DNA from: Candidatus Thorarchaeota archaeon
Lineage (GTDB): Archaea > Asgardarchaeota > Thorarchaeia > Thorarchaeales > Thorarchaeaceae
Length of the DNA: 32,452 bases
Reading direction: 5' to 3'
NCBI GenBank assembly: GCA_016839605.1
Contig: JAEOTX010000057.1
Location: forward strand, 1-32,452
Positions 5,177 through 23,659 of the stretch are shown piece by piece; position 1 is the first letter of the stretch, and the number at the start of each line of letters is the position of its first letter. The translations under genes and the position numbers were made by a program. Under the pieces are notes generated by a model that had not been told where the DNA came from, ran no database searches, and saw only the letters and a program-made list of their open reading frames with translations.

Positions 5177-5181
5177 TATCG

Positions 5182-5838: not shown

Positions 5839-6018
5839 GCAAAAGACATTTGACGATTCAACCCATTTCATTTTCAAGGTGATCTTAATCCGAGTACAGT
5901 AGTATCATAAGTTCTAGCTTCCTTGATGAAGATCTGGGACAGGGGTGATCTTTCTAATCCATTTTCTCTCTATTCATCGTGACTCGCTCAATTATGGAAG
6001 AATCAAGTCATCCTCAGA

Positions 6019-6035
6019 ATATTGTTTACTGTCAA
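6019..6035. repeat. Copy A of 17-bp direct repeat ATATT(G/A)TTTACTGTCAA
   Basis: ATATTGTTTACTGTCAA here versus ATATTATTTACTGTCAA at 10579-10595 (16/17 identical). Confidence 0.7.
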
Positions 6036-6163
6036 ACCAAGTACCTCCGTAAATGAAGGAAAGCGATGCTCAATGTAGACAATATATTAACGTTTGGATT
6101 GAAGTTCAGCCCTTTCTTTTGCGAGTTTCTGTTCCTATCATTTTGAGAGTAAGTATTCGTTTC

Positions 6164-6484
6164 TTAGCAACTATTTGAAAATGCCTTTTGCAATCTTCCT
6201 TTTCCGTCATAGCCAATGGTTTTATTCCAAAAGTATCTCATCATCATTTCCCTATCACTAGAAACCTCGTTCTCTGAGATATATTGGAAAATGGTTTCCC
6301 AAGTTACTCGTGGAAATTGCCTTCGCTGATTTTCTTTTATATGCCTCTTGAAGACAGATTCAATATTAGATTCTCGTTCAGACAAAACCAAACTAATAAG
6401 ATAGATGATTGAAGCCACAATTATCATGACTATGCCGGCTATGGCAGAAACCACGTTCAGTCCAACTTGAATGGCTTGATACAT
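6164..6484 (-). CDS. Hypothetical membrane-anchored protein, possibly frameshifted near its 3' end
   Basis: N-terminal TM helix and AT-rich sequence. Removing one T from the TTTT run near 6180 would extend it with AFQIVAKKRILTLKMIG...KG*. Confidence 0.45.
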   Translation of the reverse strand: MYQAIQVGLNVVSAIAGIVMIIVASIIYLISLVLSERESNIESVFKRHIKENQRRQFPRVTWETIFQYISENEVSSDREMMMRYFWNKTIGYDGKGRLQKAFSNSC

Positions 6485-6503
6485 TCATGCCAGCCCTGGG
6501 GTG

Positions 6504-7019
6504 TTACTGTTGAGTTTTCCAAATGTGACGCTTCCATGTTTCGCGTATCGTTCCCAACAGCAGAATTGTGATAAAGCCTGCCAAAGTCAGGATAATCCCA
6601 GTAAATAGAATCCCAGAATGGGGGAGTGGTCTTGCGACTTCGATGTGGAAAAAAATGGTTTCATTGTTATAGGGTGTGACAAGAATGGCATACATTCCTG
6701 GCAGGGGGATTTCAATCACATCGGAGTAGTTTTTAATTCCCTCAAGTGCGATTAATGGGTGAGTTTCTTCTAAGGACGCGTTCTCAAGTGCAATCATCAA
6801 TTCATCGTAACTCACTATATAGACGCAGAGAACGCTGCTGTTGTACGTATAGACCTCTATGTACGTGTTTCCGACTGCACCAAACACCCTCCCTTCGTAT
6901 GCGCCATGTTCAACTTCGGAGCTAAAGCCAAATTCACTAGATGGGACAAAGGAGATCAACAGAAAAGTGATCCCAATGATCATCAGCAACTTGCCGATTC
7001 TCACCGCAACTGAAGCCAT
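6504..7019 (-). CDS. Two-TM membrane protein with extracytoplasmic beta-rich domain (ABC accessory, paralog 2)
   Basis: N- and C-terminal TM helices. ALENASL and IEIP.PG.YAILVT.Y.N.T are shared with 7828-8409. Start set at the ATG 2 bp after the permease stop; the ORF track starts at 7094. Confidence 0.7.
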   Translation of the reverse strand: MASVAVRIGKLLMIIGITFLLISFVPSSEFGFSSEVEHGAYEGRVFGAVGNTYIEVYTYNSSVLCVYIVSYDELMIALENASLEETHPLIALEGIKNYSDVIEIPLPGMYAILVTPYNNETIFFHIEVARPLPHSGILFTGIILTLAGFITILLLGTIRETWKRHIWKTQQ

Positions 7020-7021
7020 CT

Positions 7022-7831
7022 CTAGATCTCCGCTTTCTCGAACGTAATAATGCTTGCAATGAGCGCGACCACTCCGATGAGCACTGCCCCGCAAATTCCA
7101 AAGAACACCTCTCCGGCTTGTAGTCCCATGTCGCCCCCACTGACAAAGGCATTGGTTAAGAGTATTGGATTGAGGACATTGCGAATAACATCTGGAATAC
7201 TTGGCATGACGATGACCAAAGCAATAACGTACCAGAGCGCGATTCCCATAATCGCAGTGACCTCTGCTTTCTTAGAGATAATTGAGATTAGCGTGGTTAC
7301 TGATGTAAGGAGCATTATGAACGCCCAGAGTGCAGCTGATAGGAGAAGAATGGAGAAGACCTCCCTGTTGCCAGGAACAAAGATGAAGATTACCGAGAGC
7401 GAGCTGAATGTAGCAGACATTCCCAGGAGGACAATCATCCCGGATACTTTCACCGCCAAAAATGTGATGCGATCAACGGGGTAGGACAAGTACGTATGTA
7501 GAGTTCCATCCTCGAAGCGTCCCGCCAACGTGAATGCTACGAGTAGTGGGACCACAAAGGTGAGAACATGAGAAAAGCTAAGAGCTGAGAATCCATAAAC
7601 CGATGCTGTCATGGTCTGTCGATACTCAACAAAGGACTCAATTGCCGCCGTTCCATTCCATTCCGGACCCGGTCTGAGAAGCACGTATCTTCCGGCACCA
7701 AATACTCCGAGAGTGCTGATGAATGCGATAAAGAGGAAGACCACAACCACAGCCTCAACCGTTGGGAATGAATATGACTGGTTGATTTCCAGTTCATAGA
7801 TGGATCGAAGATTCCCGCCTTCCCTCTTCAT
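7022..7831 (-). CDS. ABC-2 type transporter permease (paralog 2)
   Basis: About 6 TM helices, FEDGTLHTYLSYPVDR..FLAVK ABC-2 motif, ATGA overlap with the upstream gene. Confidence 0.85.
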   Translation of the reverse strand: MKREGGNLRSIYELEINQSYSFPTVEAVVVVFLFIAFISTLGVFGAGRYVLLRPGPEWNGTAAIESFVEYRQTMTASVYGFSALSFSHVLTFVVPLLVAFTLAGRFEDGTLHTYLSYPVDRITFLAVKVSGMIVLLGMSATFSSLSVIFIFVPGNREVFSILLLSAALWAFIMLLTSVTTLISIISKKAEVTAIMGIALWYVIALVIVMPSIPDVIRNVLNPILLTNAFVSGGDMGLQAGEVFFGICGAVLIGVVALIASIITFEKAEI

Positions 7832-8409
7832 AAAGCATTCCTTCTTTTATTGCTACTTCCGCCCATCAGTGCATCAGGATGGAGCTGCTCATTCACTGCT
7901 AGTCCATTGCTTTCTATCCCCTCGATTCTGTTCAAAGCTCGTGGTAGGATAGCAATGCACGCGCCCACAGAGAGCAGGAGAATCCCAGGAACAAGGACGC
8001 CTGCATTAGGATATGACCTATCGATGTCAACCATAACGGAACTCGTGTCATTATCGTACGATGTCACAAGGATCGCGTAGACTCCTGGCGATGGGATTTC
8101 GATGATGTCATTGCATTGTGTGATATTCTCCAGACTGACCAGCTGGTTCGTGTTATGAAGAGATGCATTCTCAAGGGCTCTTAGTGCATTCTCCGAGTCG
8201 AGAGCATACAGGGAGAAGCTCTGGTTTGTGATACTCCATGCCTCTACGTATATGTCATCAGTCGCCCTGAAAAGATAGCCCTTGTATATGCCGCTATCAA
8301 CATCAGTCCCAAAGCCGAAGCTGCCTGACCCAAGAAGTGCGACAAACACCAGCGTAATGCCAAGAGTCATCATGAGTGTAGATAGACGACTGTTCAAGGA
8401 GCCCATCAT
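7828..8409 (-). CDS. Two-TM membrane protein with extracytoplasmic beta-rich domain (ABC accessory, paralog 1)
   Basis: Paralog of 6504-7019. Translationally coupled to its neighbours (ATGA overlaps). Confidence 0.7.
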   Translation of the reverse strand: MMGSLNSRLSTLMMTLGITLVFVALLGSGSFGFGTDVDSGIYKGYLFRATDDIYVEAWSITNQSFSLYALDSENALRALENASLHNTNQLVSLENITQCNDIIEIPSPGVYAILVTSYDNDTSSVMVDIDRSYPNAGVLVPGILLLSVGACIAILPRALNRIEGIESNGLAVNEQLHPDALMGGSSNKRRNAL

Positions 8410-9215
8410 TGGACCTCCACTCTCTCAAACGCTACCAGACTTAGAGTAAGGACGACCAGTCCGACAAGCAATGTTCCCATCAAGACGATTGCCACATCCC
8501 AGGTCAGTAGCGTGCTTGTTTCTCCGGTCAACAAGCCTGCAACTGCAGCCACTGGGTTGAGAACTCCCTTGAAAGACTGGGGGAAGCCGGGGGTGTTCAC
8601 CAGTGTCAGAGCCGCTGACCAAGTCATCATCCCTGCAGCAGCACTGGCAACTGCTCTTCTTGAAACGATGCAGATCAGTACAGCCACTGAAGTAACAATC
8701 AAGATGAATATCCAAAGCGCAACGCTTAGTACGAGAATGGGGACAAGCTGCATGCTGCCGGGGATGAAGACGTGAACTGCAAGGAGCGAAAACACTGTGG
8801 CAGGCAAACCTGTTAGGAGCAGTATCGTGCCTACCTTCAATATCAGGATTCTGAAACGGGTTATTGGATACGTGAGAAAGGTCTGTAGAGTTCCATCCTC
8901 GAAGCCTTTTGCTAGGTTGAAACCAGCTAGCATAGGGATCAGCAGGATAAGAATGGAAATGAGGCCGGACAGAGAGGCTGCATACGCAGAAACTGAACCC
9001 TCCAAGAATCCGGAGTAGTGCTCGATCATCATAGTCCCATTCCATGATAGGCCTGGTCTGAGTTCCATCAGCATTGAGTCATTACCCACAGCTATTGCAC
9101 TCACAAGAGCCACGAACAGCAGGATTGCAGTGATACTCTCGAAGATTGGAAAGTAGTACGAGCAGTCCAGTTCCAGTTCAACGAAGGCCCGAAGATTCTT
9201 CCTCTCTTCACTCAT
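8406..9215 (-). CDS. ABC-2 type transporter permease (paralog 1)
   Basis: FEDGTLQTFLTYPITR..ILILK. Same length (269 aa) as 7022-7831 and shares LRPG..WNGT and VLNP with it. Confidence 0.85.
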   Translation of the reverse strand: MSEERKNLRAFVELELDCSYYFPIFESITAILLFVALVSAIAVGNDSMLMELRPGLSWNGTMMIEHYSGFLEGSVSAYAASLSGLISILILLIPMLAGFNLAKGFEDGTLQTFLTYPITRFRILILKVGTILLLTGLPATVFSLLAVHVFIPGSMQLVPILVLSVALWIFILIVTSVAVLICIVSRRAVASAAAGMMTWSAALTLVNTPGFPQSFKGVLNPVAAVAGLLTGETSTLLTWDVAIVLMGTLLVGLVVLTLSLVAFERVEVQ

Positions 9216-10125
9216 TTCTCACAAGCTCCTTAAAGGCGGCTTCAAGGCTGCCTGCCCTCTCGATTGCATACAATCTGATTCCCAAAGACGTGGCGGCATC
9301 CTCAACTTCTGCCTGAATGTCACTGATCTGACCTGATTCAAGATTGAAGGTGATGGAGTTCGCTCCCGAAACCCGGGGGCGTATCAAGCCCGGAAGTTGT
9401 TTTAGGATCTCCATGAGTCCGGCAGAATCAGATGTTATGATCCGGAAAGTATTCGATGTGTACTTCTCAATGATGTCCCGTACTGATCCCCTCTCAATTA
9501 TCTTACCAGCATCTATGAACGCGACTTGATGGCATACCCGTTCCAGTTCTGAGAGGATGTGTGAAGACACGAAGAACGAGACGCCCAATTCATGATGAAG
9601 GTTGACAATCAGATCCATTATGTCATCACGACCAGTCACATCTAGGTTTGATGTGGGCTCATCAAGGAACACCAATTCAGGACTCCCGACCAGAGCCTGA
9701 GCAATGCCAAGTCGTTGGTGCATCCCGGCTGAGAGATTCCCAATCTTTCTGTTCTTTGCGTAGGCAAGGTCAACCATGGTCAATAGGGCCTCAACTGATT
9801 TGTTGCTTCCATACAACTTTGCAACCTTGTCTAGGTAGTCCACGACTGTCATTGATTTCGGATAGGAGGGTCTTTCATGGAGGACTCCGATTCTTCTCCT
9901 CATCTCCAGTGAGTTCTTGCGTATGTCGAGGCCAAGGACCTTGCCTCCACCGACGTCAGGCCTGATGAGTCCGAGCAGTATCCGAAGAAGAGTAGTCTTT
10001 CCAGCTCCGTTTGGGCCAATGAGTCCGAAGATTCCTGAATCGACATCCAGATTCACGTTGTCCAGAGCCCTTACCTCACGAAAGTCCTTCACCAAATCAG
10101 TAACTGACACAACAAATTCCTGCAT
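9208..10125 (-). CDS. ABC transporter ATP-binding protein (DrrA/CcmA-like exporter)
   Basis: GPNGAGKTT Walker A, LSAGMHQR signature, FLDEPT Walker B, SSHIL H-loop. Confidence 0.95.
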   Translation of the reverse strand: MQEFVVSVTDLVKDFREVRALDNVNLDVDSGIFGLIGPNGAGKTTLLRILLGLIRPDVGGGKVLGLDIRKNSLEMRRRIGVLHERPSYPKSMTVVDYLDKVAKLYGSNKSVEALLTMVDLAYAKNRKIGNLSAGMHQRLGIAQALVGSPELVFLDEPTSNLDVTGRDDIMDLIVNLHHELGVSFFVSSHILSELERVCHQVAFIDAGKIIERGSVRDIIEKYTSNTFRIITSDSAGLMEILKQLPGLIRPRVSGANSITFNLESGQISDIQAEVEDAATSLGIRLYAIERAGSLEAAFKELVRNE

Positions 10126-10139
10126 GCTGAATCAATCCC

Positions 10140-10509
10140 CTCGCCTCTATCATTCTTGTGCAATTCTAATAAGAAACTCGGTCCGTGGTCTTCTGAGCTG
10201 AAGCTGTACTTGCTTGAGAAAGCAACAATTTGATTTATCAAATGAGATTTGGAATTACCTTCACTTCTAATAATAATGGTCTTCTTCTCTGTAGGCACTA
10301 AACGAAGGTTCAGCTGGCCTTCCTGTGATTTTCCCTCTTTCTAATTACAGGATCAGGAAGCAAGCTTATTTTTTCCAGTAAGTAGAAGCTGACTTCCTAA
10401 ACAGGGTTGGCCATACCTCTTTTTCAATATGCTGCTCAACCCGTTTCAGCACTTTGCATTCAATAGTATCATCCAGGGGCTTTGTTTTAGTATTTGCGCT
10501 GGTTGTCAT
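10140..10509 (-). pseudogene. Possible decayed gene remnant
   Basis: ATG at 10509 opens MTTSANTKTKPLDDTIECKVLKRVEQHIEKRG, interrupted by TAG after 37 codons. Protein-like fragments continue in shifting frames. Confidence 0.25.
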
Positions 10510-10567
10510 ATCGCTCTAACCCCTAGCGAGATTCCACTAAAATCATTCTAAGAATTCACACACTGGT

Positions 10568-10595
10568 TTGACCCAAGTATATTATTTACTGTCAA
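10568..10595. repeat. Copy B of the 17-bp repeat, within a 28-bp imperfect palindrome TTGACCCAAGT-ATATTA-TTTACTGTCAA
   Basis: TTGAC...GTCAA inverted ends in an 11-6-11 layout. Its right 17 bp recur at 6019-6035. Confidence 0.6.
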
Positions 10596-10621
10596 CTTAG
10601 GCTGCAAACGGTTGTTAGATG

Positions 10622-13600
10622 CTAGAGTTCATAGAAACTGATACCTTCTCCTTCGAGGACGTTGATGACCTCCTCTCGGATGGTGCTAAGCATATCCTCC
10701 TCAAGATCAAAGGCGGAGAGATTGTTCTTCACCTCGCTATCAACAGGCTCAGAGGATATAGCGCTTGCATATTGAGAGTTACCCATATACTTCTTGACAT
10801 TATTCACCACGCAGACCTCCAGATTATCCCCTTCATCTGCCTCCAAAAAAACAATGACCACCGTGTTAGATTGCAATTTCCTGATTTCGAGTCCCCTGTA
10901 CCTGAAGACGCAATTCCTTTCGTATAAAGGAATGGCACCATCCAATGTTGACTGGAATTCCTCATACCTCTCAGCTAGAGTTATCCTGTGGCTTTCAAAT
11001 TCATCATCAAGATTGTTGAGATAGGAGGTAGGAATCACAGATTCGACTTCCTGTCTAAATGCCTCCAGCTCTTCGTCAGGCGGCCTACCTGGAGTCAGTA
11101 TAAACGTGAATGACTTATTCATCCATGCCTTTTGTGTGGACTTCGATATAATAGACCAGACCAGCTGATTACCCTTTATCCTGTTCGAAAGCCTCCAGGT
11201 ATCACTTGACCAATCGAACTCATCGATATCCGCAGCCCGAATTGCTTCCTCAAACCGTGGGTACTGGTGGAGCCTCGAGAACCTAAGGTCCATGATGGCG
11301 TTAGCATTAAGTCTGACAGGATGCCACGTCCCCTTCCGCGAATCAAAGAGCGCCTTGCATTCAGCTAGCAACGCTAAAGCAAAGATATCGAATCCAACTT
11401 CCTCCAATCCTCTCAGGGATGAGTCTTGCGATAAATCCTCCATCTGGACATGATAGGCAGAATCTAGCCGCCGAATTACCAAAGTGACATCATCCCCGTT
11501 GGTCGAGGCGAGAAGCTCCCTGCAGGTCCTTGGATAATGAAACTCATCGGGGTAGAATCGGCTTCGATGAACTAAAGGTTTCAGAAACGAGAGTACATCG
11601 TCATCATAGTCGATATCACTTTTGTAATCCCATGCGAGGGTATTGCCCAGTGACCAATATCCCTTTCCCATTCGGATTGGAGTTCTGAGGAAGTGTACAA
11701 GCTCCTGCGTCCTTCCAAACTCATGTCGTTCCTCAACTGATTCACCCTCAATATTGACCTCATAAACCCTCAGGTCATCGTTGACATTCACCCTTAGTTT
11801 CACTGGTATGGTCTTGTGTTTCACTCGGGATAGCTTAACAAGTGCCTCCTCAATATAATCTGGAACCTCAGGCACATTAGTAGGAGGCACGAAGCCAGCT
11901 GTTGATTCCAGCTTGATCCAAGGAATGCTATTCTGCCGCCCGCTAGGTTTCCCATGGATAAGAGAGAATGAAGCCCATTCAAGTTCCTCATATTCGTTTA
12001 GTACAGGAATCCAGAGAATTTTAGTGTCCTGAACTGTGGTTACGATAAGTGAAGTTCTATCGGTTGACGATAGGGCTTCTCTTGCAAATTCCTTCAACCG
12101 CTGAGGAGCGGTCACGCACTGATGCCATTTCGACGGAATCCATCTATCGTTGAGCCCCTCAATAAATCCTGTTAGGACTCCATCATCATAAGGAATAATG
12201 ATAAGACCGTCATATCCAGATTCGGACTCCTCCCACACAATTGCACCAACCTGTTCTTCATCTGTCGCTCTCTCAGGAAGGTTGAGCTGTGAGAGAGTCT
12301 TAGTTCGAGTTCTGAGGTTGGATAAGATTGCCTGAAAGCTATACACTGACTTAGATTTGCTATCCTGCGTGTGCATGCCAAGCTGGTAGAATGTCCATTC
12401 CCCTACTGAGTTCCAGAGATGTTCTGCAAGATCCTGATTCCTGTCTTTTATAGCTGCTAAGACAGCTAAGAACAGGTTGTTGCCATACAGGAGGAGTAGG
12501 TCAGGAGTCGCTTCAACAATCTCCTCCATGGACTGCTTGTTCTCGGAGTTCAAGACTTCGTGAAGATTTTGTCTGAGGGGTAGAAGATCTTGCCAGACTG
12601 AAGCTCTCTTGGGGTCTTCAAGGATGATAAGCTGAATCTTCCTGAGTGAACCAAGGAAGAACTCCTTTCCGTTAAGGGAAGGGTTCTCCTTGAGAAGGGC
12701 AAACTGCTTTTCACAGACCTTCTCTATTCTCTTGCAGCAGTCCTTCAGACTCTTTGATAGGAAATGCTGTTTCCTCAGATATCGTGTCGCATGATAGAGC
12801 CGCCTGAGCTCAAGTTCGCGGGTTTCAAGGGTATCGATTCCGTTAGCCCCGATGTTGAAAGACATTTGAGTGTGAGTAAACACATTGGATTCTTCTTCAT
12901 CATCAATTTGCCTAGGCGTGAGTTCATAGAACCAGCGTCGTGTGATTTTCTTCTTTGGGCTTGTAAGAACATCACAATATCTTCTCTCTCCTCTTCTCGG
13001 GATGGGTGGAGGTCTTGTGACATCGAGGACCAACCTCTCACCCATTGTCGAGCCCCTTGTGGAGCTCACTGTCTGGACCATCGTCTGCCACTGAGGCTTC
13101 TTCGTTGGTTCTACGGGTTCTTCTTCTACTTCCTTGACAGACACATGGTCTCTACTCCTGAGGACGCTGGGCACAAGTGTCAGTGCATCCTCAAGGACCT
13201 CAGAGAATGATTCGCCTGATAGACTCCCAGTAGAAGCATAGATGCTGGAGAGGGTCACTCCTCTCTCGTACATGGACTGAGCTTCAGTAGTGTATGCGAT
13301 CACATCCTCAGGAGCGACGATTCTGTCCCGTCTAGCAAGTCCTCTGAACTTCTCTGCAAATCCCACAAGATGGGGGACGTGGATTGCAGCTCTCCAGGGT
13401 TCAGCCTTGGTTGGGGTGTCCTGCACAATGATTCGAACATTCTCCTGATGAGGGGTCGACCAACCAAATCCCCAGGGCGTCGTGGAGATATTATAGATGA
13501 CCTCGTCAAGATGGGTTCTACGAGGCGAGTCATGTCTGATTGGATTGACACATTTGCGCTGGTAATGTACATTCATTCGAGTATGAGGGGTTCCACTGTC

Positions 13601-15889
13601 AATCCAGATGATATTGACATTCGACTGGGGAAGAGAGTCAAGCAGATGCTGCTCAAGGGCACGGACGAGACTCTGCTGATATGCTGGAACCATCTCTTTG
13701 AGTTCCATCCAGCCATCAAGGATGATGATACGCTCATCCTCCTTCTCCTCAGGAAGAATGGTCCTGACGTGCTGGTCCAGTCTGTCTAGTGCCTCTGCTC
13801 CTTCTGTCAGAATGTCCGTAATGTTTGCGCTTAAGTCTAAAAACTCGATGGACTTGAGGGTAGCGTTGAGCTTTCGGTGGTCTATGCTAGAGATCATCTT
13901 CTCACGTAACAGAGAATCAAGACCGAATCGCTTCCCTACCAGTTCATCTGTCTTATAGTCCCCCTTGAGATCCAACCAAACGACCTTTTCGATAGGTGCC
14001 GTTGAGGTCTCGAGGCACTCTTGTATATGATGAAGGAGGTGCCAGTTTCGTGAGAGTCGTGCCGCCGTCACTCCCGAGGAGGTAGGTGAGGGAATTGACA
14101 CATAGAGTGTGAGGATGCGGTCGTCTGCCTCTCGGTCACTGAAGGGGCTCTCCACAGGTAGACTACATGGAATGACCATCTCATCCAAGAGGTCGGTTGG
14201 TCCACGGGAGGGGGCTACAAGTAGACCAACTCTTGGAACATCATCTCCAGTCCCTAGAGATTCTGGTGAAACTGAGATAGGTGCGTCCTGGTTGACAAGC
14301 TGATGAATGAGTCCTGTCGTCAGTTCTTCAAGGAGGAACTGAAAGGCTGGAAAGATCTCTATTGGGGTCTGGTCTGTATCTAGGACAATGACACCTTTCC
14401 ACAGAGAGGTTGGTGGAGTCGAATCGAAAGCCACTAGCTTCTCATAATCAGCAAGCATCTCATGTTCGTAGGTGTGTAGCTGCTGAAGTGCATCTGGTTC
14501 TGGACTCGATGTGACGAGAGAATTCCATTCGGCTTCGCTCAATGCGCGTTTCCAAGCATAGAAGGCAGGAGTGACTGATCTCTTTCGTTTGCGGATGATC
14601 TCCATTCCATAGAGGCTGAAGTCAAAGGCGGTCTTGGTCTTGACCTCAAGTACCATCACAGGTGTCCAGATGATTCGATCTGTGACCTCTCGTCTTATGA
14701 AGATGGTTAGGTCCACATGTCCAGAGCGTTTCGCAACAGGCAACTCAGCGACCACAAGAATTGGTGTCAGTGAATCGAGCATTTTGTCCCCTGAGAACAC
14801 TACTTGTCTCAATGAAACGGGATGGTGGAGATTGGAGAGGAGTATCCTGTGCCAGTTGTTTCCTTCTCGCTGACTGAGAGCTAATACGTGTTCGATGAGT
14901 TTCTCAACATCCTTGTCTGCAACCATTCCCTCATCAGTATCAATGTAGTCCAAAAGCTCTTCCATTGACTTTCTCTCAGTCTTGTCAGCTGCTTCCTTGA
15001 GCTGCCTGATAGCCTTCTTTCGAATCTTTTCGATGGACAGGTCTATCGAGCTCTCTCCGTGTGTCTTTGAGATTCGCTGACGAGTCCTGCTACGTTTCCT
15101 GTAGAGTGCCCGAATCTCAAGGACAATCTTCCTGAGCTCATAATCTGCATGGGGATTGAAGTTTGGTCTACCTGTCCTTCCATCAGTGTATATCCAATCA
15201 AGGAAAGGCTTCAGTCGATGAATGAGGAGCTGAATGTATCGATGCGACTCAGTCATAGGGACATGATAGATGAAACATTGCCGACAGAGTTCGACACAAT
15301 GAGCCCTGATCATATCCACAAAATCTAGTCCTGGCAGGGTGGGATGAGATAGAAATATCCGGGGGCTCTTTGCCTCTCGCTCGTACCCATATCGCCAGTA
15401 AATCTTCGTAGCGCCATCATCCACTATTTCGTCAGCTTCAGTCTTAGTGAATATTCTCTTGCTCCCATCTAGATATTCACGAATCTGAAATGCTTGCGGT
15501 CTTGGAAATGGGTAGAGGGTCATAGCAATATCGCGAAGTCGTGCTCCTGCATAGTTGAGTAGAGCGTTGAGTGGACCGACGGTTCCCTCCAGCCAGCTAT
15601 AGACCCGCTTGAGCTCTTTGTTTCCGAATCGCTTAGTGCTAGTCCATACAATCTTGAGAAACTGGCCACGCATATTTGGCTCTGCATTCTGGACGTGAGA
15701 AAAGTCGGTACCCCCCTGTTCGAAGTCTTTACGGGCTGAGTTCCACATCTTCTCGATGCTCTGATAGTGCCTACGAGTCTTCCTACTTACTCTATTCCGA
15801 GCTATTCGAGTCAATGCTACAAGGCCCATGTATATTGCAGTACTGATGGTACCACTTGGATTGTCGATCTTTCCTTTTCGACCCCTCAT
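10622..15889 (-). CDS. Giant multidomain protein (~1755 aa): RecB/Cas4-like PD-(D/E)xK nuclease, degenerate RecA-like ATPase fold, and uncharacterised C-terminal ~1000 aa
   Basis: Uninterrupted 5.3-kb ORF. EGNNWH, VAELP, GHVD, LEVK and QLHTY motifs (aa ~350-482 of the track ORF). SPTSSGVT, KVVWLD and IIILDG pattern (aa ~600-775). TTTATATG at 15920-15913 favours a leaderless ATG at 15889 over GTG 15913. Confidence 0.7.
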   Translation of the reverse strand: MRGRKGKIDNPSGTISTAIYMGLVALTRIARNRVSRKTRRHYQSIEKMWNSARKDFEQGGTDFSHVQNAEPNMRGQFLKIVWTSTKRFGNKELKRVYSWLEGTVGPLNALLNYAGARLRDIAMTLYPFPRPQAFQIREYLDGSKRIFTKTEADEIVDDGATKIYWRYGYEREAKSPRIFLSHPTLPGLDFVDMIRAHCVELCRQCFIYHVPMTESHRYIQLLIHRLKPFLDWIYTDGRTGRPNFNPHADYELRKIVLEIRALYRKRSRTRQRISKTHGESSIDLSIEKIRKKAIRQLKEAADKTERKSMEELLDYIDTDEGMVADKDVEKLIEHVLALSQREGNNWHRILLSNLHHPVSLRQVVFSGDKMLDSLTPILVVAELPVAKRSGHVDLTIFIRREVTDRIIWTPVMVLEVKTKTAFDFSLYGMEIIRKRKRSVTPAFYAWKRALSEAEWNSLVTSSPEPDALQQLHTYEHEMLADYEKLVAFDSTPPTSLWKGVIVLDTDQTPIEIFPAFQFLLEELTTGLIHQLVNQDAPISVSPESLGTGDDVPRVGLLVAPSRGPTDLLDEMVIPCSLPVESPFSDREADDRILTLYVSIPSPTSSGVTAARLSRNWHLLHHIQECLETSTAPIEKVVWLDLKGDYKTDELVGKRFGLDSLLREKMISSIDHRKLNATLKSIEFLDLSANITDILTEGAEALDRLDQHVRTILPEEKEDERIIILDGWMELKEMVPAYQQSLVRALEQHLLDSLPQSNVNIIWIDSGTPHTRMNVHYQRKCVNPIRHDSPRRTHLDEVIYNISTTPWGFGWSTPHQENVRIIVQDTPTKAEPWRAAIHVPHLVGFAEKFRGLARRDRIVAPEDVIAYTTEAQSMYERGVTLSSIYASTGSLSGESFSEVLEDALTLVPSVLRSRDHVSVKEVEEEPVEPTKKPQWQTMVQTVSSTRGSTMGERLVLDVTRPPPIPRRGERRYCDVLTSPKKKITRRWFYELTPRQIDDEEESNVFTHTQMSFNIGANGIDTLETRELELRRLYHATRYLRKQHFLSKSLKDCCKRIEKVCEKQFALLKENPSLNGKEFFLGSLRKIQLIILEDPKRASVWQDLLPLRQNLHEVLNSENKQSMEEIVEATPDLLLLYGNNLFLAVLAAIKDRNQDLAEHLWNSVGEWTFYQLGMHTQDSKSKSVYSFQAILSNLRTRTKTLSQLNLPERATDEEQVGAIVWEESESGYDGLIIIPYDDGVLTGFIEGLNDRWIPSKWHQCVTAPQRLKEFAREALSSTDRTSLIVTTVQDTKILWIPVLNEYEELEWASFSLIHGKPSGRQNSIPWIKLESTAGFVPPTNVPEVPDYIEEALVKLSRVKHKTIPVKLRVNVNDDLRVYEVNIEGESVEERHEFGRTQELVHFLRTPIRMGKGYWSLGNTLAWDYKSDIDYDDDVLSFLKPLVHRSRFYPDEFHYPRTCRELLASTNGDDVTLVIRRLDSAYHVQMEDLSQDSSLRGLEEVGFDIFALALLAECKALFDSRKGTWHPVRLNANAIMDLRFSRLHQYPRFEEAIRAADIDEFDWSSDTWRLSNRIKGNQLVWSIISKSTQKAWMNKSFTFILTPGRPPDEELEAFRQEVESVIPTSYLNNLDDEFESHRITLAERYEEFQSTLDGAIPLYERNCVFRYRGLEIRKLQSNTVVIVFLEADEGDNLEVCVVNNVKKYMGNSQYASAISSEPVDSEVKNNLSAFDLEEDMLSTIREEVINVLEGEGISFYEL

Positions 15890-15912
15890 CGCTGAAATAG
15901 TATCAAGAGGCA

Positions 15913-16130
15913 CATATAAATATAATTAATTTCGTTGGTAACCAAAATTACTCTAAATCATAATTTAAGCCATGATAAGCCTAATTTTATAAAATTGGGC
16001 TATTATAACATTATAATCTTAATAAGTTTATATTCATTCTGTATTACTATTTGGTAGGAGTTCAAAACCGATTCTCAAGACGAGGATTGGAGTGAACTCT
16101 CAAAGAAACAGGTCAGAAGTTTATATTCAT
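15913..16130. promoter_or_regulatory. AT-rich divergent promoter region with palindromic operator-like site and duplicated TATA element
   Basis: TATA boxes at 15920-15913 (-) and 16027-16034 (+). 24-bp palindrome AGCCTAATTTTATAAAATTGGGCT at 15978-16001. AAGTTTATATTCAT repeated at 16024-16037 and 16117-16130. Confidence 0.65.
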
Positions 16131-16142
16131 CAGGTGTATGAA

Positions 16143-17921
16143 ATGGGTCGCTCCAAGGGAACGATAATCAGCGTTAAAGTCCCAATCCGTTGGGGAGTCA
16201 TGACTGATAGGCAGAAGACTCGGCTCAACCGTATCACAGGTAGAGACACACGAGTCATCAAGGCCTATCTTGGAGTGATTGAACGCCATGAGAACGAATT
16301 GCTGACAGGTCGCAAACGGACGAGAATAAACGCTTCCCTATTGGATAAGCTCACCTTGACTGCATCACGGGGAAAGGCAGACAGGAGTCATGTGCCTCAT
16401 GACTTCAAGTCACGGTTTTCCAACATCTCTGTGAATGAGTTTCAGGAGTGTCGCGATACTGCGATTGCCATGTGGCAGAGCTACCTTGAGTTAAATCGCA
16501 GAAAGCCTCTTAGTGCGAAGAGATACTCAACGAGGAAGATTCCTCGATATGCATTCGCTCAACGTTTTCAGCGAATTTACGCACCAGAGCTCGAGATAAG
16601 ACACTGGCTCAAGCTTCGTGATTCGTTAGACTCCGTTTCTGCGGGTTGTAAAAGGCATGATAAACTCATGATCCCTCTCTCAATCTCCTCCTATCATCTA
16701 AACAAGATGAAAGAGGGTAAGGTGAAGACTGTTCGTATCTTCAAGGACTCCCGTCGCAAATGGTGGGCTATCTTCACTGTGACGCTCGATATAGAAGTCC
16801 TGGAATCATCTATGAAACCTCCTGCAGTCTTGTCTATTGACTTGGGGATCGACAAGGCTGCGTGCTCCGTGCTTCTTACTCAGAAAGGATACAAGCAAGT
16901 CAGATACTGGAAACAGGAAGACAAGCTTCGACGAATGAGAGCGTTGGATGACAGGATTGCTTCTCTTCAGAGGGAGAAGGAAACACTTCTTTCACAGGGA
17001 AGGAATGCTGATGCAGTCAGCAGAAAACTCCGGAGCCTGAGCGGAAAAAGACAGCGTGTTAGTAAAGAGCTTGACAAGAATCTGGTCAAGGGCATCTCGG
17101 AACACATCCAAGAGATGGCCGACCAATTCGACCTCTATGTCTCAATTGGCAAGGTGAAGGGCATAAGGAACACAGCTCGAAGAGGCAACTTCAAGGGAAG
17201 TAAGTTCAGAGGTATGATTCACCGCTGGGCCTTCGCCAGGATTCGCGATATGTTGGACCATAAGCTCGCTACGCTTGGTTTTGATGGCAAGCATTACAGA
17301 GCTGTTCCTGAACAATGGACTTCAATCATGTGTCACAAGTGCGGACACAAGGGAATGCGACCGAAACAGAATCTCTTCATCTGTCACACCTGTGGATATC
17401 GTGCAAACGCCGACCTGAACGGCGCCATCAATATTGGGAAGCGCCTCATCATGCTCATCCGCTCACTGAGAGATGAGAAAGGACTAGGGATGTGGCTCAC
17501 TCCAAAGGACAGAGCCATCCTGAAAGCCCGGAGGAAGACTCGTTCATCTCAAGGGAAGTCCTCATTCCCCCAGAAGTTGCCAGCTTCGATTGAAGGGGAG
17601 TCCGTGGCTGACTGCAGTGACCAGACCTCACTTGTGGAGTTTGCGAGCAGTGAAGACCCCGCCATGGTAAAAGCTGTGGAAGAACCGTCTGCATCCAGCA
17701 AATCTGGTAGCGCTGGAGGAATGCAGCGGACAGAAGCCGGGTCCCGACAGAGGAACAATGTTCCGCTGAAGTTGGGCAAAGCTCCCGTCATTTCAAGAGA
17801 TGAAAGTCTTTTGGAAGCTGGTGACAGCAGTCGTGAGAAAGGTGGAACGCAGAAGTTTCTTGTTGGTTCACTCAACCAAAAACAAGCAACAGTTCCTAGG
17901 CAAAAGAGTAATCTCCCTTGA
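16143..17921 (+). CDS. tnpB: TnpB/Cas12f-like RNA-guided nuclease with rearranged RuvC-II, and no adjacent tnpA
   Basis: RuvC-I LSIDLG, HRWAFARIRDMLDHK helix, WTSIMCHKCG...FICHTCG zinc finger, RuvC-III NADLNGAINI. The RuvC-II position reads VSIGK. Start set at ATG 16143 (AGGTG SD); the track starts at 16092. Confidence 0.88.
   Translation: MGRSKGTIISVKVPIRWGVMTDRQKTRLNRITGRDTRVIKAYLGVIERHENELLTGRKRTRINASLLDKLTLTASRGKADRSHVPHDFKSRFSNISVNEFQECRDTAIAMWQSYLELNRRKPLSAKRYSTRKIPRYAFAQRFQRIYAPELEIRHWLKLRDSLDSVSAGCKRHDKLMIPLSISSYHLNKMKEGKVKTVRIFKDSRRKWWAIFTVTLDIEVLESSMKPPAVLSIDLGIDKAACSVLLTQKGYKQVRYWKQEDKLRRMRALDDRIASLQREKETLLSQGRNADAVSRKLRSLSGKRQRVSKELDKNLVKGISEHIQEMADQFDLYVSIGKVKGIRNTARRGNFKGSKFRGMIHRWAFARIRDMLDHKLATLGFDGKHYRAVPEQWTSIMCHKCGHKGMRPKQNLFICHTCGYRANADLNGAINIGKRLIMLIRSLRDEKGLGMWLTPKDRAILKARRKTRSSQGKSSFPQKLPASIEGESVADCSDQTSLVEFASSEDPAMVKAVEEPSASSKSGSAGGMQRTEAGSRQRNNVPLKLGKAPVISRDESLLEAGDSSREKGGTQKFLVGSLNQKQATVPRQKSNLP
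17470..17890 (+). ncRNA. Candidate omega/reRNA scaffold overlapping the 3' end of tnpB
   Basis: Consecutive hairpins with G-U pairs on the + strand, including an 11-bp stem with GAAA loop (17791-17816). The overlying ~130 aa are low-complexity. The position matches known TnpB reRNAs. Confidence 0.6.
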
Positions 17922-17937: not shown

Positions 17938-18351
17938 ATGCAAGAGATGAGGGAACTCCTGAACTACGTGATCAAATCAAAGCGATATCTCAAAGAGATA
18001 TACTACACCAATCGAGATGAGAATCTGAAAGCTGATGCGAAGGAGCTTGTCGCAGCCATAATAGCAGTTCAGAGAACTCTCGAGCACATTTTGACTTTGA
18101 AGCGAAGATCAAAGACAGCCAAGAGAGTTCTTGGAGACAGGAAAGCTGAGATGTCAGTTAGGCGGTGGAGTGCAGGACTTCCCCGAAGAGTGAGTGACTA
18201 CGTCGAGAAGGAGAAGAAGCTGGAGCAGCATCATCTACATAGATATCAGGTTATTCTTCTCCAATATTTGGAGAATATGGGGACTGAACTAGTCGCATGG
18301 GCTGAGGACATCGATATGCTTCGCGAAATTCCTCGCATACCCAAGGACTAG
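17938..18351 (+). CDS. Hypothetical alpha-helical protein (137 aa)
   Basis: GAGGT SD before ATG 17938. Charged helical composition. The track start at 17800 overlaps tnpB and is unlikely. Confidence 0.65.
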   Translation: MQEMRELLNYVIKSKRYLKEIYYTNRDENLKADAKELVAAIIAVQRTLEHILTLKRRSKTAKRVLGDRKAEMSVRRWSAGLPRRVSDYVEKEKKLEQHHLHRYQVILLQYLENMGTELVAWAEDIDMLREIPRIPKD

Positions 18352-18354: not shown

Positions 18355-19434
18355 TTACCAGCGAAGTCGTGCAGCAACTCCTCCAAATGAGTTCAATTGT
18401 GCACCGGATTCGGTCTGTCCAGAGAAGACCATGAGCTCAGTGCCATACTCACTGATTTCATCATATAGTGAATCGATGAGCTCGGTATGATCTTCAGAAA
18501 TCATAATGGTCTCAACGCGGCCTGCTCTGAGGGCATCCATGACCTCTTTTTTGCCATAAGCTACGGCATTCTCGCCCTTCATCAGATCTTCCATGAATTT
18601 ATCCCATATCTGTCGCTCAGCAAAGATTTCTGTTTCTTTGAGAAGACGTGAAGCCTCTTTCATAGCTTGAAATAATCCAGTCTCATCAATGATGCTCACT
18701 GGTATGATGGTCTCTGCAATCTTCTCACGGATTCGATAGTCTAAGTCACCCTTCTCAAGAAACTCCTGACACCGAATTGTATTGCCTCCTAGGACTATGG
18801 CATCCACGTTGTCTATATTCTCCAGAAGAAGGTCCTTTAGCATCCTTCCAACGTACCGGAAGAACTCCATCATTTTTTCTTCTCTAATACGCAAATACCG
18901 CTTGGCACTCTGACCGCCCGCGCGAGTCTTTCCGATGATATAGAAGTCCTCATCACGGACAAGTTCCATGTGCTTGCCACGTAGATAGCCTATGGTAACC
19001 TTACCACCTTCAATCAACGTGATGACAACCAGACTCTTGGGTAGAGTCATATCTTCAAGCTCATCAGTGATAAACTCTCGACCACAGATGTAAGTAAACT
19101 GTGAGATTGGGGATGGAGGAATGACCATCTCACGGATCTCCTCGGTAGTTCCACCCTCTTCAACGATTCCAAAGAAGAACGCCACGCCATTCTCAGGCAT
19201 GGAGTTGATTAGGTTGAGCTCGCTAAGGATTGCTGTGAGATTGTCTTGCACGTTCTTTCTATTCGGTTTGCTCTTGATGTTATCAGCACCTGCCAGCTCA
19301 GCTTTCACAAAGCCTGTCACATCCACTAGACTCTTTGTCGGAGGGATGTAAAGTGTGGTGAAAGAGCTATGTCTACCCTGGAGTGCCTTTAGTTGTTGGA
19401 CCTTTCTCTTGAGCTTCTGACGCTCGGCAGACAT
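18355..19434 (-). CDS. prf1: Archaeal peptide chain release factor 1 (aRF1)
   Basis: NIKS, YICGREF (YxCxxxF) and GGQSAKRY motifs, and C-terminal FGGVAARLRW. GAGGTGA SD before ATG 19434. Confidence 0.93.
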   Translation of the reverse strand: MSAERQKLKRKVQQLKALQGRHSSFTTLYIPPTKSLVDVTGFVKAELAGADNIKSKPNRKNVQDNLTAILSELNLINSMPENGVAFFFGIVEEGGTTEEIREMVIPPSPISQFTYICGREFITDELEDMTLPKSLVVITLIEGGKVTIGYLRGKHMELVRDEDFYIIGKTRAGGQSAKRYLRIREEKMMEFFRYVGRMLKDLLLENIDNVDAIVLGGNTIRCQEFLEKGDLDYRIREKIAETIIPVSIIDETGLFQAMKEASRLLKETEIFAERQIWDKFMEDLMKGENAVAYGKKEVMDALRAGRVETIMISEDHTELIDSLYDEISEYGTELMVFSGQTESGAQLNSFGGVAARLRW

Positions 19435-19734
19435 TTGTTTCACCTCTTTGTCTCTACTGATTTGACGGGTTTCTTGAAGAACGAGTGGCCGTCAGGCAAC
19501 CGCCAGGCTCATCCCATGAAAGTCCGTATTTTAACGTTACGTAGCGGACCATAGCAGAGATTGGCGACAAATTAAAAAGGCGAACACTAGACATCCTGCA
19601 GTATACAGGTGAAGAAGGGATGTACCGCCAATTTATATCATTGTAGCAAAGGATTGCTTCTTCTATGAACCCAGTTCGTATGTGGCGTCACATTTCAACC
19701 ATCCTAACAGTAGCTCTGGAGTTTTGATATACAG

Positions 19735-21252
19735 ATGAGCGAACAGCTGACAAAAGGAGAGAGAACAGTTCTCAAAGAACTTGTCAACATCAGCGAGAGG
19801 ATAACATCGAGGATTCTCGCCAAAGGACTTGATGAGAAAGAAGAACGCGTTGTCTCAATTCTCAACTCACTCTCACAGAGAGGATTAATTGAACTTGAAA
19901 CATCGGAAATTGTATCATATTATCTTTCGGATGAGGGGCGTGAATACGCAGAGAGAGGACTTCCAGAAGTTAGGCTGTTTCGAGCAGTCGTTGAGCTTGG
20001 TGGTCGGGCTAGTGTAGACAACGCCGTATCTAAGAGCGGGATATCTCAGAAATCCAAAGGCATTGCTTTGAGCTGGACAAGAAAGAATGGATGGCTCGCA
20101 ATATCAAAAGAGAATGAAACTACATTCCTTTCTGCAAATACTGAGGTCGTCGAAACTCCAATTAAGAGCATCCTCTCGATGATTCATAAAGGAGAACATC
20201 GATTCCCTAGAAGGCATGAACCATCATTACAGATCGCCTTGGAGCGGTCATTAATCACGGCCAAAACAGCGAAGGTCTTTGTAGCAAAGGTATCTGAAGA
20301 AATGCGAGGAATAGCGGAGAATCTCATTGGGGAAGAAGTTAGCGGCATTATAGATTTGACACCAGAAATGCTGGTGGAACGGACATGGGAAGGCAAAGAC
20401 TTCAGACCCTACAATGTTGAGTTGCAGCCAGCGTACGCAAACTATGGCAAGAAGCATCCATATGCCGAGTTCAATGATTGGCTCCGAGAAATTATGATTG
20501 GACTGGGATTCACGGAGTGGGATGGTCCTTATGTCGAGACCGAGTTCTGGGCACATGACACGCTATTCGTGCCCCAGGATCATGTAGCTAGAGAGGTTCA
20601 GGATCAATTCCGGATTGAGTCACCGTACGACCACGGAGATATCAGAGATAAGAAGTACTACAGAGCTGTAAAGGCAGTACATGAGAATGGAGGCGATACA
20701 GGTTCCAAGGGATGGGATTGGCCGTTTAGCAGAGAGATTGCCACAAGGCTCTGTCTTCGCCCTCATACTACTCCTGTTTCGATGAGATATCTCTGGGAGC
20801 ATCGGGAAAGCCCTCAGAAAATGTTCATCATCGATCGCAACTTCAGATCAGAAACTCTGAGTGCCACTCATGGTCAAGAGTTCGATCAGTGCGAAGGCAT
20901 CATCATGGATAAGGGTCTCACACTTAGGGATCTTCTAGGATATTTGAAAGCCATATGCAATGCTGTGGGAATAAAGAAGCTCAAGTTCAAGCCAGGTCAG
21001 TTTCCGTTCACTGAGCCAAGTGTAGAAACCTTTGGAAAACATGAGAAGCTTGGGTGGATTGAACTCGGCGGATCTGGAATCTTCAGACCTGAGGTCACTT
21101 ATCCACTTGGGATTAAGGATACTGTCTTAGCGTGGGGAATCGGTTCTGGTCGGCTCTACATGGCAGCAATGGGTATCAATGACATCAGGGAACTATTCTC
21201 AAGGGATCTCAATTGGCTAAGAAAGAGCAGCTTCGCGAGGGAGGCGGTATAA
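19735..21252 (+). CDS. pheS: Phenylalanine--tRNA ligase alpha subunit (archaeal/eukaryotic long type)
   Basis: GKKHPY, LFVPQDHVARE.QD.F, LRPHTT, FRSE.L.ATH..EF.Q.EG, FPFTEPS, GSGIFRPEV and AWGIG motifs. Confidence 0.97.
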   Translation: MSEQLTKGERTVLKELVNISERITSRILAKGLDEKEERVVSILNSLSQRGLIELETSEIVSYYLSDEGREYAERGLPEVRLFRAVVELGGRASVDNAVSKSGISQKSKGIALSWTRKNGWLAISKENETTFLSANTEVVETPIKSILSMIHKGEHRFPRRHEPSLQIALERSLITAKTAKVFVAKVSEEMRGIAENLIGEEVSGIIDLTPEMLVERTWEGKDFRPYNVELQPAYANYGKKHPYAEFNDWLREIMIGLGFTEWDGPYVETEFWAHDTLFVPQDHVAREVQDQFRIESPYDHGDIRDKKYYRAVKAVHENGGDTGSKGWDWPFSREIATRLCLRPHTTPVSMRYLWEHRESPQKMFIIDRNFRSETLSATHGQEFDQCEGIIMDKGLTLRDLLGYLKAICNAVGIKKLKFKPGQFPFTEPSVETFGKHEKLGWIELGGSGIFRPEVTYPLGIKDTVLAWGIGSGRLYMAAMGINDIRELFSRDLNWLRKSSFAREAV

Positions 21253-22917
21253 ATGAATGTGGAAAGCAGAATTGATGACCTCCTCAATCTCATTGGAAAG
21301 AAGCTATCTCTCGAGGAACTTGAAGATGCACTCTTCTTGATCAAAGCTGAGGTTGAAAAAGTTGAAGGAAACATCATCGAGATAGAGGTGAATCCAGACC
21401 GTCAAGATATGCTATCAACTGAGGGAATAGCTAGAGCGGTTAGAGCATTCCTGAGAATTGACTCTGGACTCGTCAAATATCCCACAAAGAAGTCTGGACT
21501 AGAAGCGATAGTCAAGCAAGGACTAACCAAGATAAGACCATACTTAGCATGTTCGATAATCAAGGGTGTGGAAACAGATGACGAGCTTATCAAAGAGTAC
21601 ATGCACTTGCAGGAGGCTCTCACAGCCACACATGGAAGAAACAGGAAGAAAGCAAGCATCGGACTATACGTTTTCGATGATATTGAATTCCCCTTGATAT
21701 ATGGTCCTCGCAAACCAGAAGACATCGCTTTCGTACCCTTGGGATATGAGATTGAGATGAATGGGCCAACAATCCTCACCGACCACGAAAAAGGGGTAGA
21801 CTTCGGTTCGATAATATCTGGATTCAAGAAGTGGCCATTGCTCTACGACTCCAAAGGAGAGGTCCTTAGTCTGCCGCCTATCATCAATAGTAATGACCTT
21901 GGCCGCATAACGACTGACACACACAATTTATTCGTCGAGGTGACTGGAACGCACCTTCCTACGGTGAATCAAGCACTCAATATTATGACAACATCACTAG
22001 CGGAACGAAACGGCAGAGTGGAATCAATAACTGTTGTCTATCCCGATGGGACTACTCACGAAACCCCTGATTTCAGCCCAGAAGAGATGATGATCTCAAA
22101 AGATGAGATCAATAAACTGAGCGGTTTTGATCTTGACAAGACGGGTATAATCGACGCATTGGGAAGAACTGGCTATGGAGCAAAACAGAGAAAGGCAGGC
22201 CAAATTGAAGTCCTGATTCCAAGTTATCGAGTAGATGTGTTGCATCCAGTAGATGTGATTGAGGATATTGCAATAGGCTATGGATTCGATAGAATTGAGC
22301 CTGGTATGCCACAGACGATGACGACTGGGAAGGCAAAACCTGTGACCGGATTAAAGAACAAGGTGCGAGACCTCATGGTTGGCGCAGGTTATCAAGAGAT
22401 AATGAGCTATATCATGAGTTCTCCGGAACTCCTGAATGAGAAGGTGCTCAGAGACCGGCCACTGGTTGTGACAGCAAATCCAAAGAGTCGCGAATATTCA
22501 GTATTAAGGAACTCACTCCTCCCGATTCTGCTTGCCTTCGCTTCCCAAAATCAGCACGCTGAATATCCCCAGAGGATATTCGAAGTTGGAGACGTCGCAG
22601 TGCCCGATGAGATGATGGAGACTCGGATACAGCAAATCCCATCTGTATGTGGATTAGTCACAGACACAACTGTCAACATCACAGACTTGGCTAATGAAAT
22701 CGGGTTCCTTCTAAGAAACATGGGATTCGATTCAAGATTCGCATATAAGAAGAGAGAAGATCCGACCTTCATCAAGGGGAGGAGTGCGGACATTCTTTTG
22801 GATGATGAGCCAGTTGGTCTATTTGGAGAGGTCAATCCCAAGGTTCTCTCAAATCTGGAGCTGGGAACTCCAGTTATAGCCTTCGAGATATACCTGCCAA
22901 GGGATGGACAGTGGTAA
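21253..22917 (+). CDS. pheT: Phenylalanine--tRNA ligase beta subunit
   Basis: NPDRQDMLS.EG.ARA, GRNRKKASIG, VLSLPPIINS, YRVDVLHPVDVIEDIAIGYG and LRNSLLP motifs. Abuts pheS. Confidence 0.97.
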   Translation: MNVESRIDDLLNLIGKKLSLEELEDALFLIKAEVEKVEGNIIEIEVNPDRQDMLSTEGIARAVRAFLRIDSGLVKYPTKKSGLEAIVKQGLTKIRPYLACSIIKGVETDDELIKEYMHLQEALTATHGRNRKKASIGLYVFDDIEFPLIYGPRKPEDIAFVPLGYEIEMNGPTILTDHEKGVDFGSIISGFKKWPLLYDSKGEVLSLPPIINSNDLGRITTDTHNLFVEVTGTHLPTVNQALNIMTTSLAERNGRVESITVVYPDGTTHETPDFSPEEMMISKDEINKLSGFDLDKTGIIDALGRTGYGAKQRKAGQIEVLIPSYRVDVLHPVDVIEDIAIGYGFDRIEPGMPQTMTTGKAKPVTGLKNKVRDLMVGAGYQEIMSYIMSSPELLNEKVLRDRPLVVTANPKSREYSVLRNSLLPILLAFASQNQHAEYPQRIFEVGDVAVPDEMMETRIQQIPSVCGLVTDTTVNITDLANEIGFLLRNMGFDSRFAYKKREDPTFIKGRSADILLDDEPVGLFGEVNPKVLSNLELGTPVIAFEIYLPRDGQW

Positions 22918-23624: not shown

Positions 23625-23659
23625 CTGAAGAAACACGTATCTGCAAAGGAGGAACAAAG

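Follow-up and report, generated by a model that had tools for sequence, protein, structure and literature searches.

The stretch of DNA analysed here (the window; 32,452 nucleotides) is the whole of one contig from an 80%-complete genome of a Candidatus Thorarchaeota archaeon, and contains two long genes placed head-to-head, a giant gene on the reverse strand and a tnpB gene on the forward strand. The original prediction described this pair, together with a structured RNA at the 3′ end of tnpB, as a possible domesticated module limited to positions 10622-17921, in which a transposase-less TnpB and the giant protein would act in defence or form a new type of mobile element that belongs to no described family. 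The head-to-head arrangement was confirmed, as was the AT-rich divergent region of about 250 bp (253 bp with 29% GC between the likely starts at 15889 and 16143). The pairing itself, however, is already published. TnpB loci associated with aCas1 were reported from Asgard archaea as the groups Cas1H-Asgard-1 and -2, with aCas1 proposed as a transposase (Altae-Tran et al. 2023, PMC10691335), and that paper attributes aCas1 to Makarova et al. 2020 (CRISPR J 3:156). The window pair is an aCas1-TnpB element of this kind: all features compared with the description in PMC10691335 were found here, the assignment being made by features and not by published profiles or sequences. As read from its sequence, it is an ordinary representative of that published family, and its boundaries are unusually clean. 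Its main features are as follows (aa, amino acids; TAM, target-adjacent motif).

5847-17897: whole mobile element of about 12.05 kb as defined by empty-allele comparison, comprising the cargo, the giant gene, the control region between the divergent genes, tnpB and the omegaRNA
5833-5836: TAM-like 4-nt motif GCAT, directly before the guide-matching sequence in the empty allele
5836-5846, forward strand: left copy of an 11-bp direct repeat (target duplication), present as a single copy in empty alleles
6164-10125, reverse strand: cargo, an ABC-2 transporter operon (ATPase gene at 9208-10125, two pairs of permease and membrane-protein genes, and a 106-aa open reading frame)
10622-15913, reverse strand: giant aCas1 gene of 1763 aa (1755 aa from the likely ATG at 15889), a putative integrase/transposase
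16092-17921, forward strand: tnpB, with a likely start at ATG 16143 and a rearranged RuvC-II
17470-17897, forward strand: omegaRNA scaffold of about 430 nt, lying over the 3′ end of tnpB and stopping at the fixed end of the element
17897-17907, forward strand: right copy of the 11-bp direct repeat, from empty-allele comparison
From 17898, forward strand (feature 17897-17917, shared with the right repeat copy): flank-derived guide, matching the empty allele right behind GCAT

Boundaries, cargo and target site

Empty-site alleles, which the original prediction had proposed to look for, were found in nine genomes of the same genus. In these alleles, the sequence at 5846 runs straight into that at 17908 with a single copy of the repeat, and the element thus reaches back to 5847, well beyond the two genes. 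The junctions at 5846/17908 and the direct repeat place the ABC-2 operon within the element, as 4.8 kb of captured cargo. This five-gene ABC block, with an ATPase about 71% identical, was found in four genomes from two other genera. Neither a giant gene nor a TnpB gene lay beside these free-standing blocks in the stretches examined, and no close copy of the cargo block was found in 16 other genomes of the same genus.

The left repeat copy overlaps the stop codon of a host gene (5161-5838), which encodes a PD-(D/E)XK protein with a C-terminal cysteine cluster. The flank-derived guide and the GCAT motif appear to recreate a full target in the empty allele only; at the filled left junction, 10 guide-matching bases are left. 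In this copy, both junctions and the empty allele could be mapped with single-base precision, and the motif (ending in AT) and the length of the duplication are predictable. No terminal inverted repeats were seen at the mapped ends of the window element, and no conserved left end was found across related elements. The cargo arm holds two copies of a 20-bp AT-rich motif (6009-6104 and 10576-10595), the longer of which shares 82% identity with an intergenic stretch of another genome (G003, L131). This motif was considered as a left end (6016-6035 and 10576-10595) and rejected, since its relatives stand between ordinary genes; it is probably a promoter or terminator.

The giant protein, TnpB and the guide RNAs

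The giant protein was divided into the following regions, all encoded on the reverse strand.

15143-15880: Cas1/casposase-like catalytic helical domain (aa ~12-257), with E78, H190, D197, D200 and R203
14201-15085: PD-(D/E)XK (RecB/Cas4-like) nuclease domain, in which H355, D401, K425, Q478 and Y482 are invariant
13199-14125: RecA/KaiC-like fold without the Walker A lysine (pseudo-ATPase), from structure comparison and homolog alignment
12320-12862: possible second, degenerate Cas1-like helical domain (aa ~1018-1198), a weak lead

The structure of residues 8-930 was predicted with a pLDDT of 88.6 and a pTM of 0.88. When the N-terminal ~250 residues were compared with 48,161 chains, the seven top matches were Cas1 proteins or casposase (Z 13.0-10.8), including Cas1 in 8flj (Z 13.0), 4n06 (Z 11.8) and the casposase 6opm (Z 10.8), with 172-190 residues aligned at a root-mean-square deviation of about 4. 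The nuclease domain matched MGME1 with a Z of 7.7. H190, D200 and R203 are present in all 123 giant homologs and E78 in 122 of the 123, and the spacing of Cas1 motifs suggests that E78, H190 and D200 form the Cas1 catalytic triad. The invariant Cas1-type and nuclease residues are kept in giant homologs at 24-80% identity. Pfam, PDB sequence and ESM feature searches returned no family for the giant protein. For the region around aa 1018-1198, nine Cas1-family chains covering the same range were found among the top 41 rows, at a Z of only 4.4-6.2. Profile comparison of the two putative Cas1 domains revealed no similarity (probability 0.3%), and a Foldseek search with the C-terminal half of the protein gave nothing significant. 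On the strength of the predicted structure, the giant is a Cas1 variant to which a PD-(D/E)XK nuclease and a RecA fold have been fused.

The locus had been described as free of Y1 or serine tnpA, cas1 and CRISPR arrays, and searches for these genes returned none: Y1 TnpA and IS607 serine TnpA were found neither in the element nor elsewhere in the 80%-complete genome, CRISPR-type Cas1 was found nowhere in that genome, and there is no CRISPR array in the window and no array or cas2 in the element. The description fails, however, in that the first ~250 residues of the giant fold like Cas1 or casposase; the adjoining TnpB is hardly transposase-less, the giant being a likely integrase.

Numbered from ATG 16143, the RuvC site of TnpB comprises D233, a glycine at the position of the usual glutamate, an alternative glutamate at E390, and D424. 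A rearranged RuvC-II has been described for such TnpBs (PMC10691335). As D233, E390 and D424 are invariant in 45 TnpB proteins, the nuclease is probably active, and the idea of a nuclease-dead TnpB was rejected in view of the invariant E390. The tail of TnpB after about aa 445 is a read-through over the RNA gene. The structure proposed for this 3′ end was borne out: folding of 17470-17897 as a single sequence was only modestly more favourable than that of shuffles (z -1.6), and an alignment of 26 sequences revealed two-sided compensatory change in 53 of 95 predicted pairs. No Rfam family matched the RNA. The family motif GTTCACTCA lies at 17866-17874, in the downstream part of the scaffold. 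The scaffold ends about 23 nt 3′ of GTTCACTCA and is followed by the guide, and the variable stretch 5′ of GTTCACTCA forms a hairpin arm.

The divergent region contains three further features.

15978-16001: imperfect AT-rich palindrome of 24 bp (22/24, one mismatched pair), not conserved in relatives
16019-16037, forward strand: probable tnpB TATA-box region, with the TAM-like TTAAT (16019-16023) followed by a 14-nt self-target (16024-16037)
16090-16130, forward strand: leader guide, with a 27-nt repeat (16090-16116) resembling CRISPR RNA (crRNA), followed by a 14-nt spacer (16117-16130)

The palindrome, which had been noted earlier as the centre of the region, is indeed rare by chance (reached by 5 of 2000 shuffles); it is imperfect and not kept in close relatives, and was rejected as a key control site for this lack of conservation. 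The leader spacer is identical to the promoter target over 14 nt, and the leader repeat ends like the 3′ end of the omegaRNA and is complementary to the tip of the scaffold. A leader unit was found in 51 of 56 loci, at a near-fixed spacing of 92-101 bp from a promoter target that lies upstream. In 39 of the 51, the spacer is identical to its own promoter at 13 or more of 14 positions, compared with 0.9% across loci; the spacers comprise 46 different 14-mers, and over about 50 loci the guide changes together with its target. In 43 of 46 cases, pairing of the leader repeat with the scaffold of its own locus is better than with an average scaffold from elsewhere. Loci of a second TnpB class (see below) have an analogous 12-13-nt copy in about 10 of 17. 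The best reading of the leader unit is that it would direct RNA-guided autorepression through a short match. No report of RNA-guided promoter self-repression by TnpB was found in a literature search judged by titles and abstracts.

Partner exchange, insertion and proposed mechanism

The giant and TnpB were found head-to-head in 52 of 53 full-length giants, the remaining one being at a contig end, so that homologs of the giant do keep an adjacent TnpB. Among the 53, the partner belongs to the window class in 35 and to a very different class of ~720 aa with a canonical RuvC in 17. The TnpB class switches at least seven times on the giant tree. Where the partner is of the first class, the TnpB tree contradicts 17 of the 23 strong splits in the giant tree, and the correlation between the identity matrices is only weak (rho 0.19). 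The window giant is nested among giants paired with the other TnpB class, and the window TnpB groups with elements whose giants are only ~40-50% identical. The two-protein module of the original prediction is not supported as a fixed pairing, and the trees, whose congruence it proposed to test, conflict; the two proteins fit exchangeable modules rather than a co-evolved complex.

The giant is confined to one Thorarchaeota family among 61 genomes searched: it occurs in 20 of 36 other family genomes, with up to ~10 matches each, and in none of 24 more distant genomes. Only 202 matches were found in 1.8 billion representatives, and the named homologs are almost all labelled Thorarchaeota, with a few Lokiarchaeota or Promethearchaeia.

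Additional genes were seen in some relatives. An IS607 serine TnpA gene lies convergent to aCas1, right after the giant gene, in six loci (L037, L038, L045, L049, L064 and L081), with a remnant in L036; these loci belong to the ~720-aa class, and their order (tnpA, aCas1 in inverted orientation, tnpB) looks like the outcome of aCas1 moving into an IS607 element. A gene of ~235 aa (weak DUF5882), on the aCas1 strand, lies between tnpB and aCas1 in three elements from different genera (L053:13101-13844, L055:6367-7041 and L092:8146-8856). An acidic gene of ~206 aa with no Pfam match, which may be an accessory gene, is convergent to two short (~1410-aa) aCas1 genes (L062:11464-12087 and L078:11324-11944).

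Copies of the element are multi-copy and patchy among the family genomes, and have different flanks. Empty alleles were found for four loci of the source genome, and a related genus contains gene-less omegaRNA derivatives whose end coincides exactly with that of the scaffold and whose left parts vary. These properties are at odds with domestication. An ordinary IS1341-type insertion, with near-identical tnpB copies in unrelated contexts, also does not describe the source genome, in which tnpB copies are only 45-68% identical; solo TnpB copies do exist, two of them in this genome. Gene-less derivatives of 550-750 bp are numerous (L202-L213, in genomes G076, G086, G087, G094 and G095); they keep the whole omegaRNA and a fixed right end, and their left parts are mosaic.

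Across relatives, the guide-RNA end is fixed and the far end is variable. A second copy of the dinucleotide AT with the initial 7 guide bases was seen on the far side of 13 of 57 elements, where ~2 would be expected and the maximum in 300 shuffles was 6-7; with CT in place of AT the score was 6, and with any of the remaining dinucleotides 0-3. The far-side copy of five full-length elements stands at a distance of 7.6-8.8 kb from the fixed end, immediately beyond the giant gene. Judging from these recurrences, insertion follows AT with a 7-10-bp duplication, so that the host flank becomes the TnpB guide.

Strand transfer by Cas1-type enzymes creates a target duplication. As such a duplication is present here, aCas1 is the best candidate for the mover. 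IS200/IS605 insertion, in contrast, proceeds without target duplication (Meers et al. 2023, PMC10055086). The suggestion that the giant is a mobilisation enzyme was therefore upheld, in that aCas1 is most likely the integrase of an element that is not of the IS200/IS605 type.

The sequences of these genomes show the boundaries and empty sites, the duplication rule, the folds and conserved residues, the co-variation and the partner swaps; from these we infer all enzymatic activities, the strand-transfer geometry, the route of cargo capture, the cleavage of empty alleles and the repression in the following scheme, to which we assign a probability of roughly 70%. The locus would be a Thorarchaeota mobile element with two exchangeable modules, of which aCas1 inserts the element, and TnpB retains it and represses itself. 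aCas1 would join the fixed omegaRNA end right after a short host motif ending in AT, and the variable far end 7-10 bp further on, which would produce the short duplication. The loosely defined far end would let neighbouring DNA travel along, here the ABC operon. TnpB with its ~430-nt omegaRNA would adopt the new flank as a guide and cut element-free alleles, which offer the motif and a full match. The filled allele would be spared by having 10 matching bases only, which would favour retention or homing as in IS200/IS605. Paralogous loci of the source genome follow the same pattern on tRNA genes: their guide matches the tRNA allele of element-free relatives, and the resident tRNA-Thr, -Gln or -Pro gene is recoded or interrupted in the target. 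A short crRNA-like leader RNA may pair in trans with the tip of the omegaRNA and bring TnpB to the TATA box, where a match of 12-15 nt would permit binding without cutting. TnpB would thereby repress its own gene, and perhaps that of aCas1.

Several observations weigh against this scheme. The Cas1 match is structural only, and for helical domains a Z of 13 can be a common score; there is no sequence-profile match of the giant to Cas1, and the N-terminal beta domain of Cas1 is missing. The AT-plus-duplication signature is absent from 44 of the 57 elements, which may be old, truncated or lodged in tRNA or rRNA genes, or may have arrived by other routes. Six of the 17 second-class loci carry the IS607 serine TnpA beside the giant, so that the mover may at times be something other than the giant. 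The leader spacer itself resembles a TATA box and could function as a second promoter, a duplicated promoter being the alternative to a guide. Related loci are, moreover, not independent, so that the statistics and leader counts are overstated.

The guides could also be read as showing a different relation between TnpB and insertion. tRNA or 16S rRNA genes adjoin at least 15 of the 53 elements, and several elements carry internal guides, some in arrays of 2-3 units, that match those genes behind a consistent G(G/A)AT. TnpB-omegaRNA, with crRNA-like repeats in trans, might thus pick a conserved tRNA or rRNA target and recruit aCas1, resembling the homing of CRISPR-associated transposons (CAST), or aCas1 might write the guide arrays, which would make the element a CRISPR-like precursor. 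Two source-genome loci have a guide that is separated from the flank or inverted to it, with the junction still 9 nt into the protospacer, and the leader repeat and scaffold resemble crRNA and trans-activating crRNA (tracrRNA), as this explanation would have it. We nevertheless regard it as unlikely. Gene-less copies occur at many unrelated sites, each with a new flank, and their guide cannot predate insertion; the window guide, too, is plain host flank. The junctions are located within the seed, which would be covered by TnpB; the spacers of the arrays match host sequence over 12-17 nt only (27 nt in one case), and the repeated switching of giants between TnpB classes and the conflicting splits also speak against recruitment by TnpB. 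CAST-like targeting, which had been inferred from the guide arrays, was downgraded given the gene-less copies and the tree conflicts, and the idea that TnpB and its RNA target integration is disfavoured for dispersed copies.

Two sets of these loci deserve description. In the source genome, other TnpB elements in tRNA-Pro, tRNA-Thr and tRNA-Gln (L001:6640-8990; L001:11700-12250 with L002:8600-8750; L004:560-2760) bring along tRNA sequence, recoded or with an insert, that evades the guide of the element itself. In seven other loci (L058, L061, L070, L093, L094, L059 and L068), 2-3 repeat-guide units 3′ of the omegaRNA match several host 16S rRNA sites, each behind G(G/A)AT; the 3′ end of the 16S gene lies ~200 bp past the aCas1 stop, and some copies have small inserts at the targets.

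It is similarly improbable that the giant is a passenger on a non-autonomous, IS1341/IS607-like TnpB that is moved by TnpA in trans, or by TnpB cutting and homologous recombination. The IS607 TnpA genes and the remnant in a seventh second-class locus would suit such a passenger, as would the solo TnpB copies and the lack of a conserved left end. Set against these are the target duplication, which IS200/IS605 insertion does not make (PMC10055086), the failure to find Y1 or serine TnpA in the 80%-complete genome, the retention of invariant Cas1-type and nuclease residues by the giant, and the fact that the giant essentially never occurs without TnpB. A domesticated defence module of two proteins and a guide RNA is very improbable: both genes are intact and always paired, and fusions of nuclease and NTPase-like domains are common in defence systems (weak matches only), but the unit was recently mobile, with empty sites and a duplication, its ATPase fold has no lysine, its partners are exchanged, and all placeable guides point to host DNA or the element's own promoter and none to foreign DNA.

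The region just past the target contains a 137-aa gene (17938-18351), which was found in 76 of 86 family genomes and to which no function was assigned. It is followed by host genes typical of Asgard archaea (18355-26511), encoding aRF1/eRF1, PheRS alpha and beta, a Ras/Rab-like small GTPase (23025-23624) and a leucine-rich-repeat protein (24574-26511).

Comparison with known systems

The aCas1-TnpB loci of PMC10691335 share with the element studied here an Asgard host, a Cas1-variant gene adjoining tnpB, two distinct TnpB groups, flanking repeats (here an 11-bp direct repeat), and GTTCACTCA downstream of tnpB. PMC10691335 suggests that the guide could lie in the variable stretch upstream of GTTCACTCA, whereas this stretch is a hairpin arm here and the guide lies 3′ of the scaffold end. 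The passage of that paper on these loci gives no insertion rule, variable far end with cargo, leader self-guide or partner swaps. The family, known from computational cataloguing, brings together in a single selfish element a Cas1-type integrase and a Cas12 ancestor, the two halves from which CRISPR-Cas descends, and its host belongs to the archaeal group closest to eukaryotes. If the proposed reading is correct, a guide split into repeat and anti-repeat would be a natural intermediate linking omegaRNA with tracrRNA/crRNA, and a Cas1-type enzyme able to insert 7-12 kb in the absence of inverted repeats could serve DNA integration.

Casposons have an integrase of the Cas1 fold, duplicate their target, and frequently use tRNA genes as targets. 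The aCas1-TnpB elements resemble them in all three respects, the Cas1-family integrase of the window element being recognized by structure only (6opm, Z 10.8), with no sequence-level match. The window element differs in having no family B DNA polymerase open reading frame in 5847-17897, no terminal inverted repeats and one fixed end only; its integrase is a giant protein of several domains, and it also carries an RNA-guided nuclease.

With the IS200/IS605 and IS607 OMEGA systems (PMC10055086), the element shares an omegaRNA at a fixed right end, the use of the host flank as guide, gene-less derivatives, and a motif common to the insertion site and the nuclease; cleavage of the empty allele is a likely common function. 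Unlike those systems, it has no TnpA, a target duplication, an omegaRNA of ~430 nt, a rearranged RuvC-II, and a second guide that would act in trans from the leader. The serine TnpA of IS607 is absent upstream of the window tnpB and is present in six relatives of the other TnpB class.

RNA-guided autorepression occurs in CRISPR-Cas systems, through the long tracrRNA of Cas9 and the CreR-type mini-arrays of type I. TldR repressors are nuclease-dead TnpBs (10.1101/2023.11.30.569447). The leader guide proposed here would resemble both in using a short match to a promoter and in blocking transcription without cutting; it differs in that the nuclease is seemingly intact, in its location within a transposon, and in the split repeat/anti-repeat guide. 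Type V CRISPR-Cas differs from the element, which contains no array or cas2, guide arrays of 2-3 units being found in some relatives only. By analogy with these systems, the element would be casposon-like for insertion and IS605-TnpB-like for retention, and is a member of neither group.

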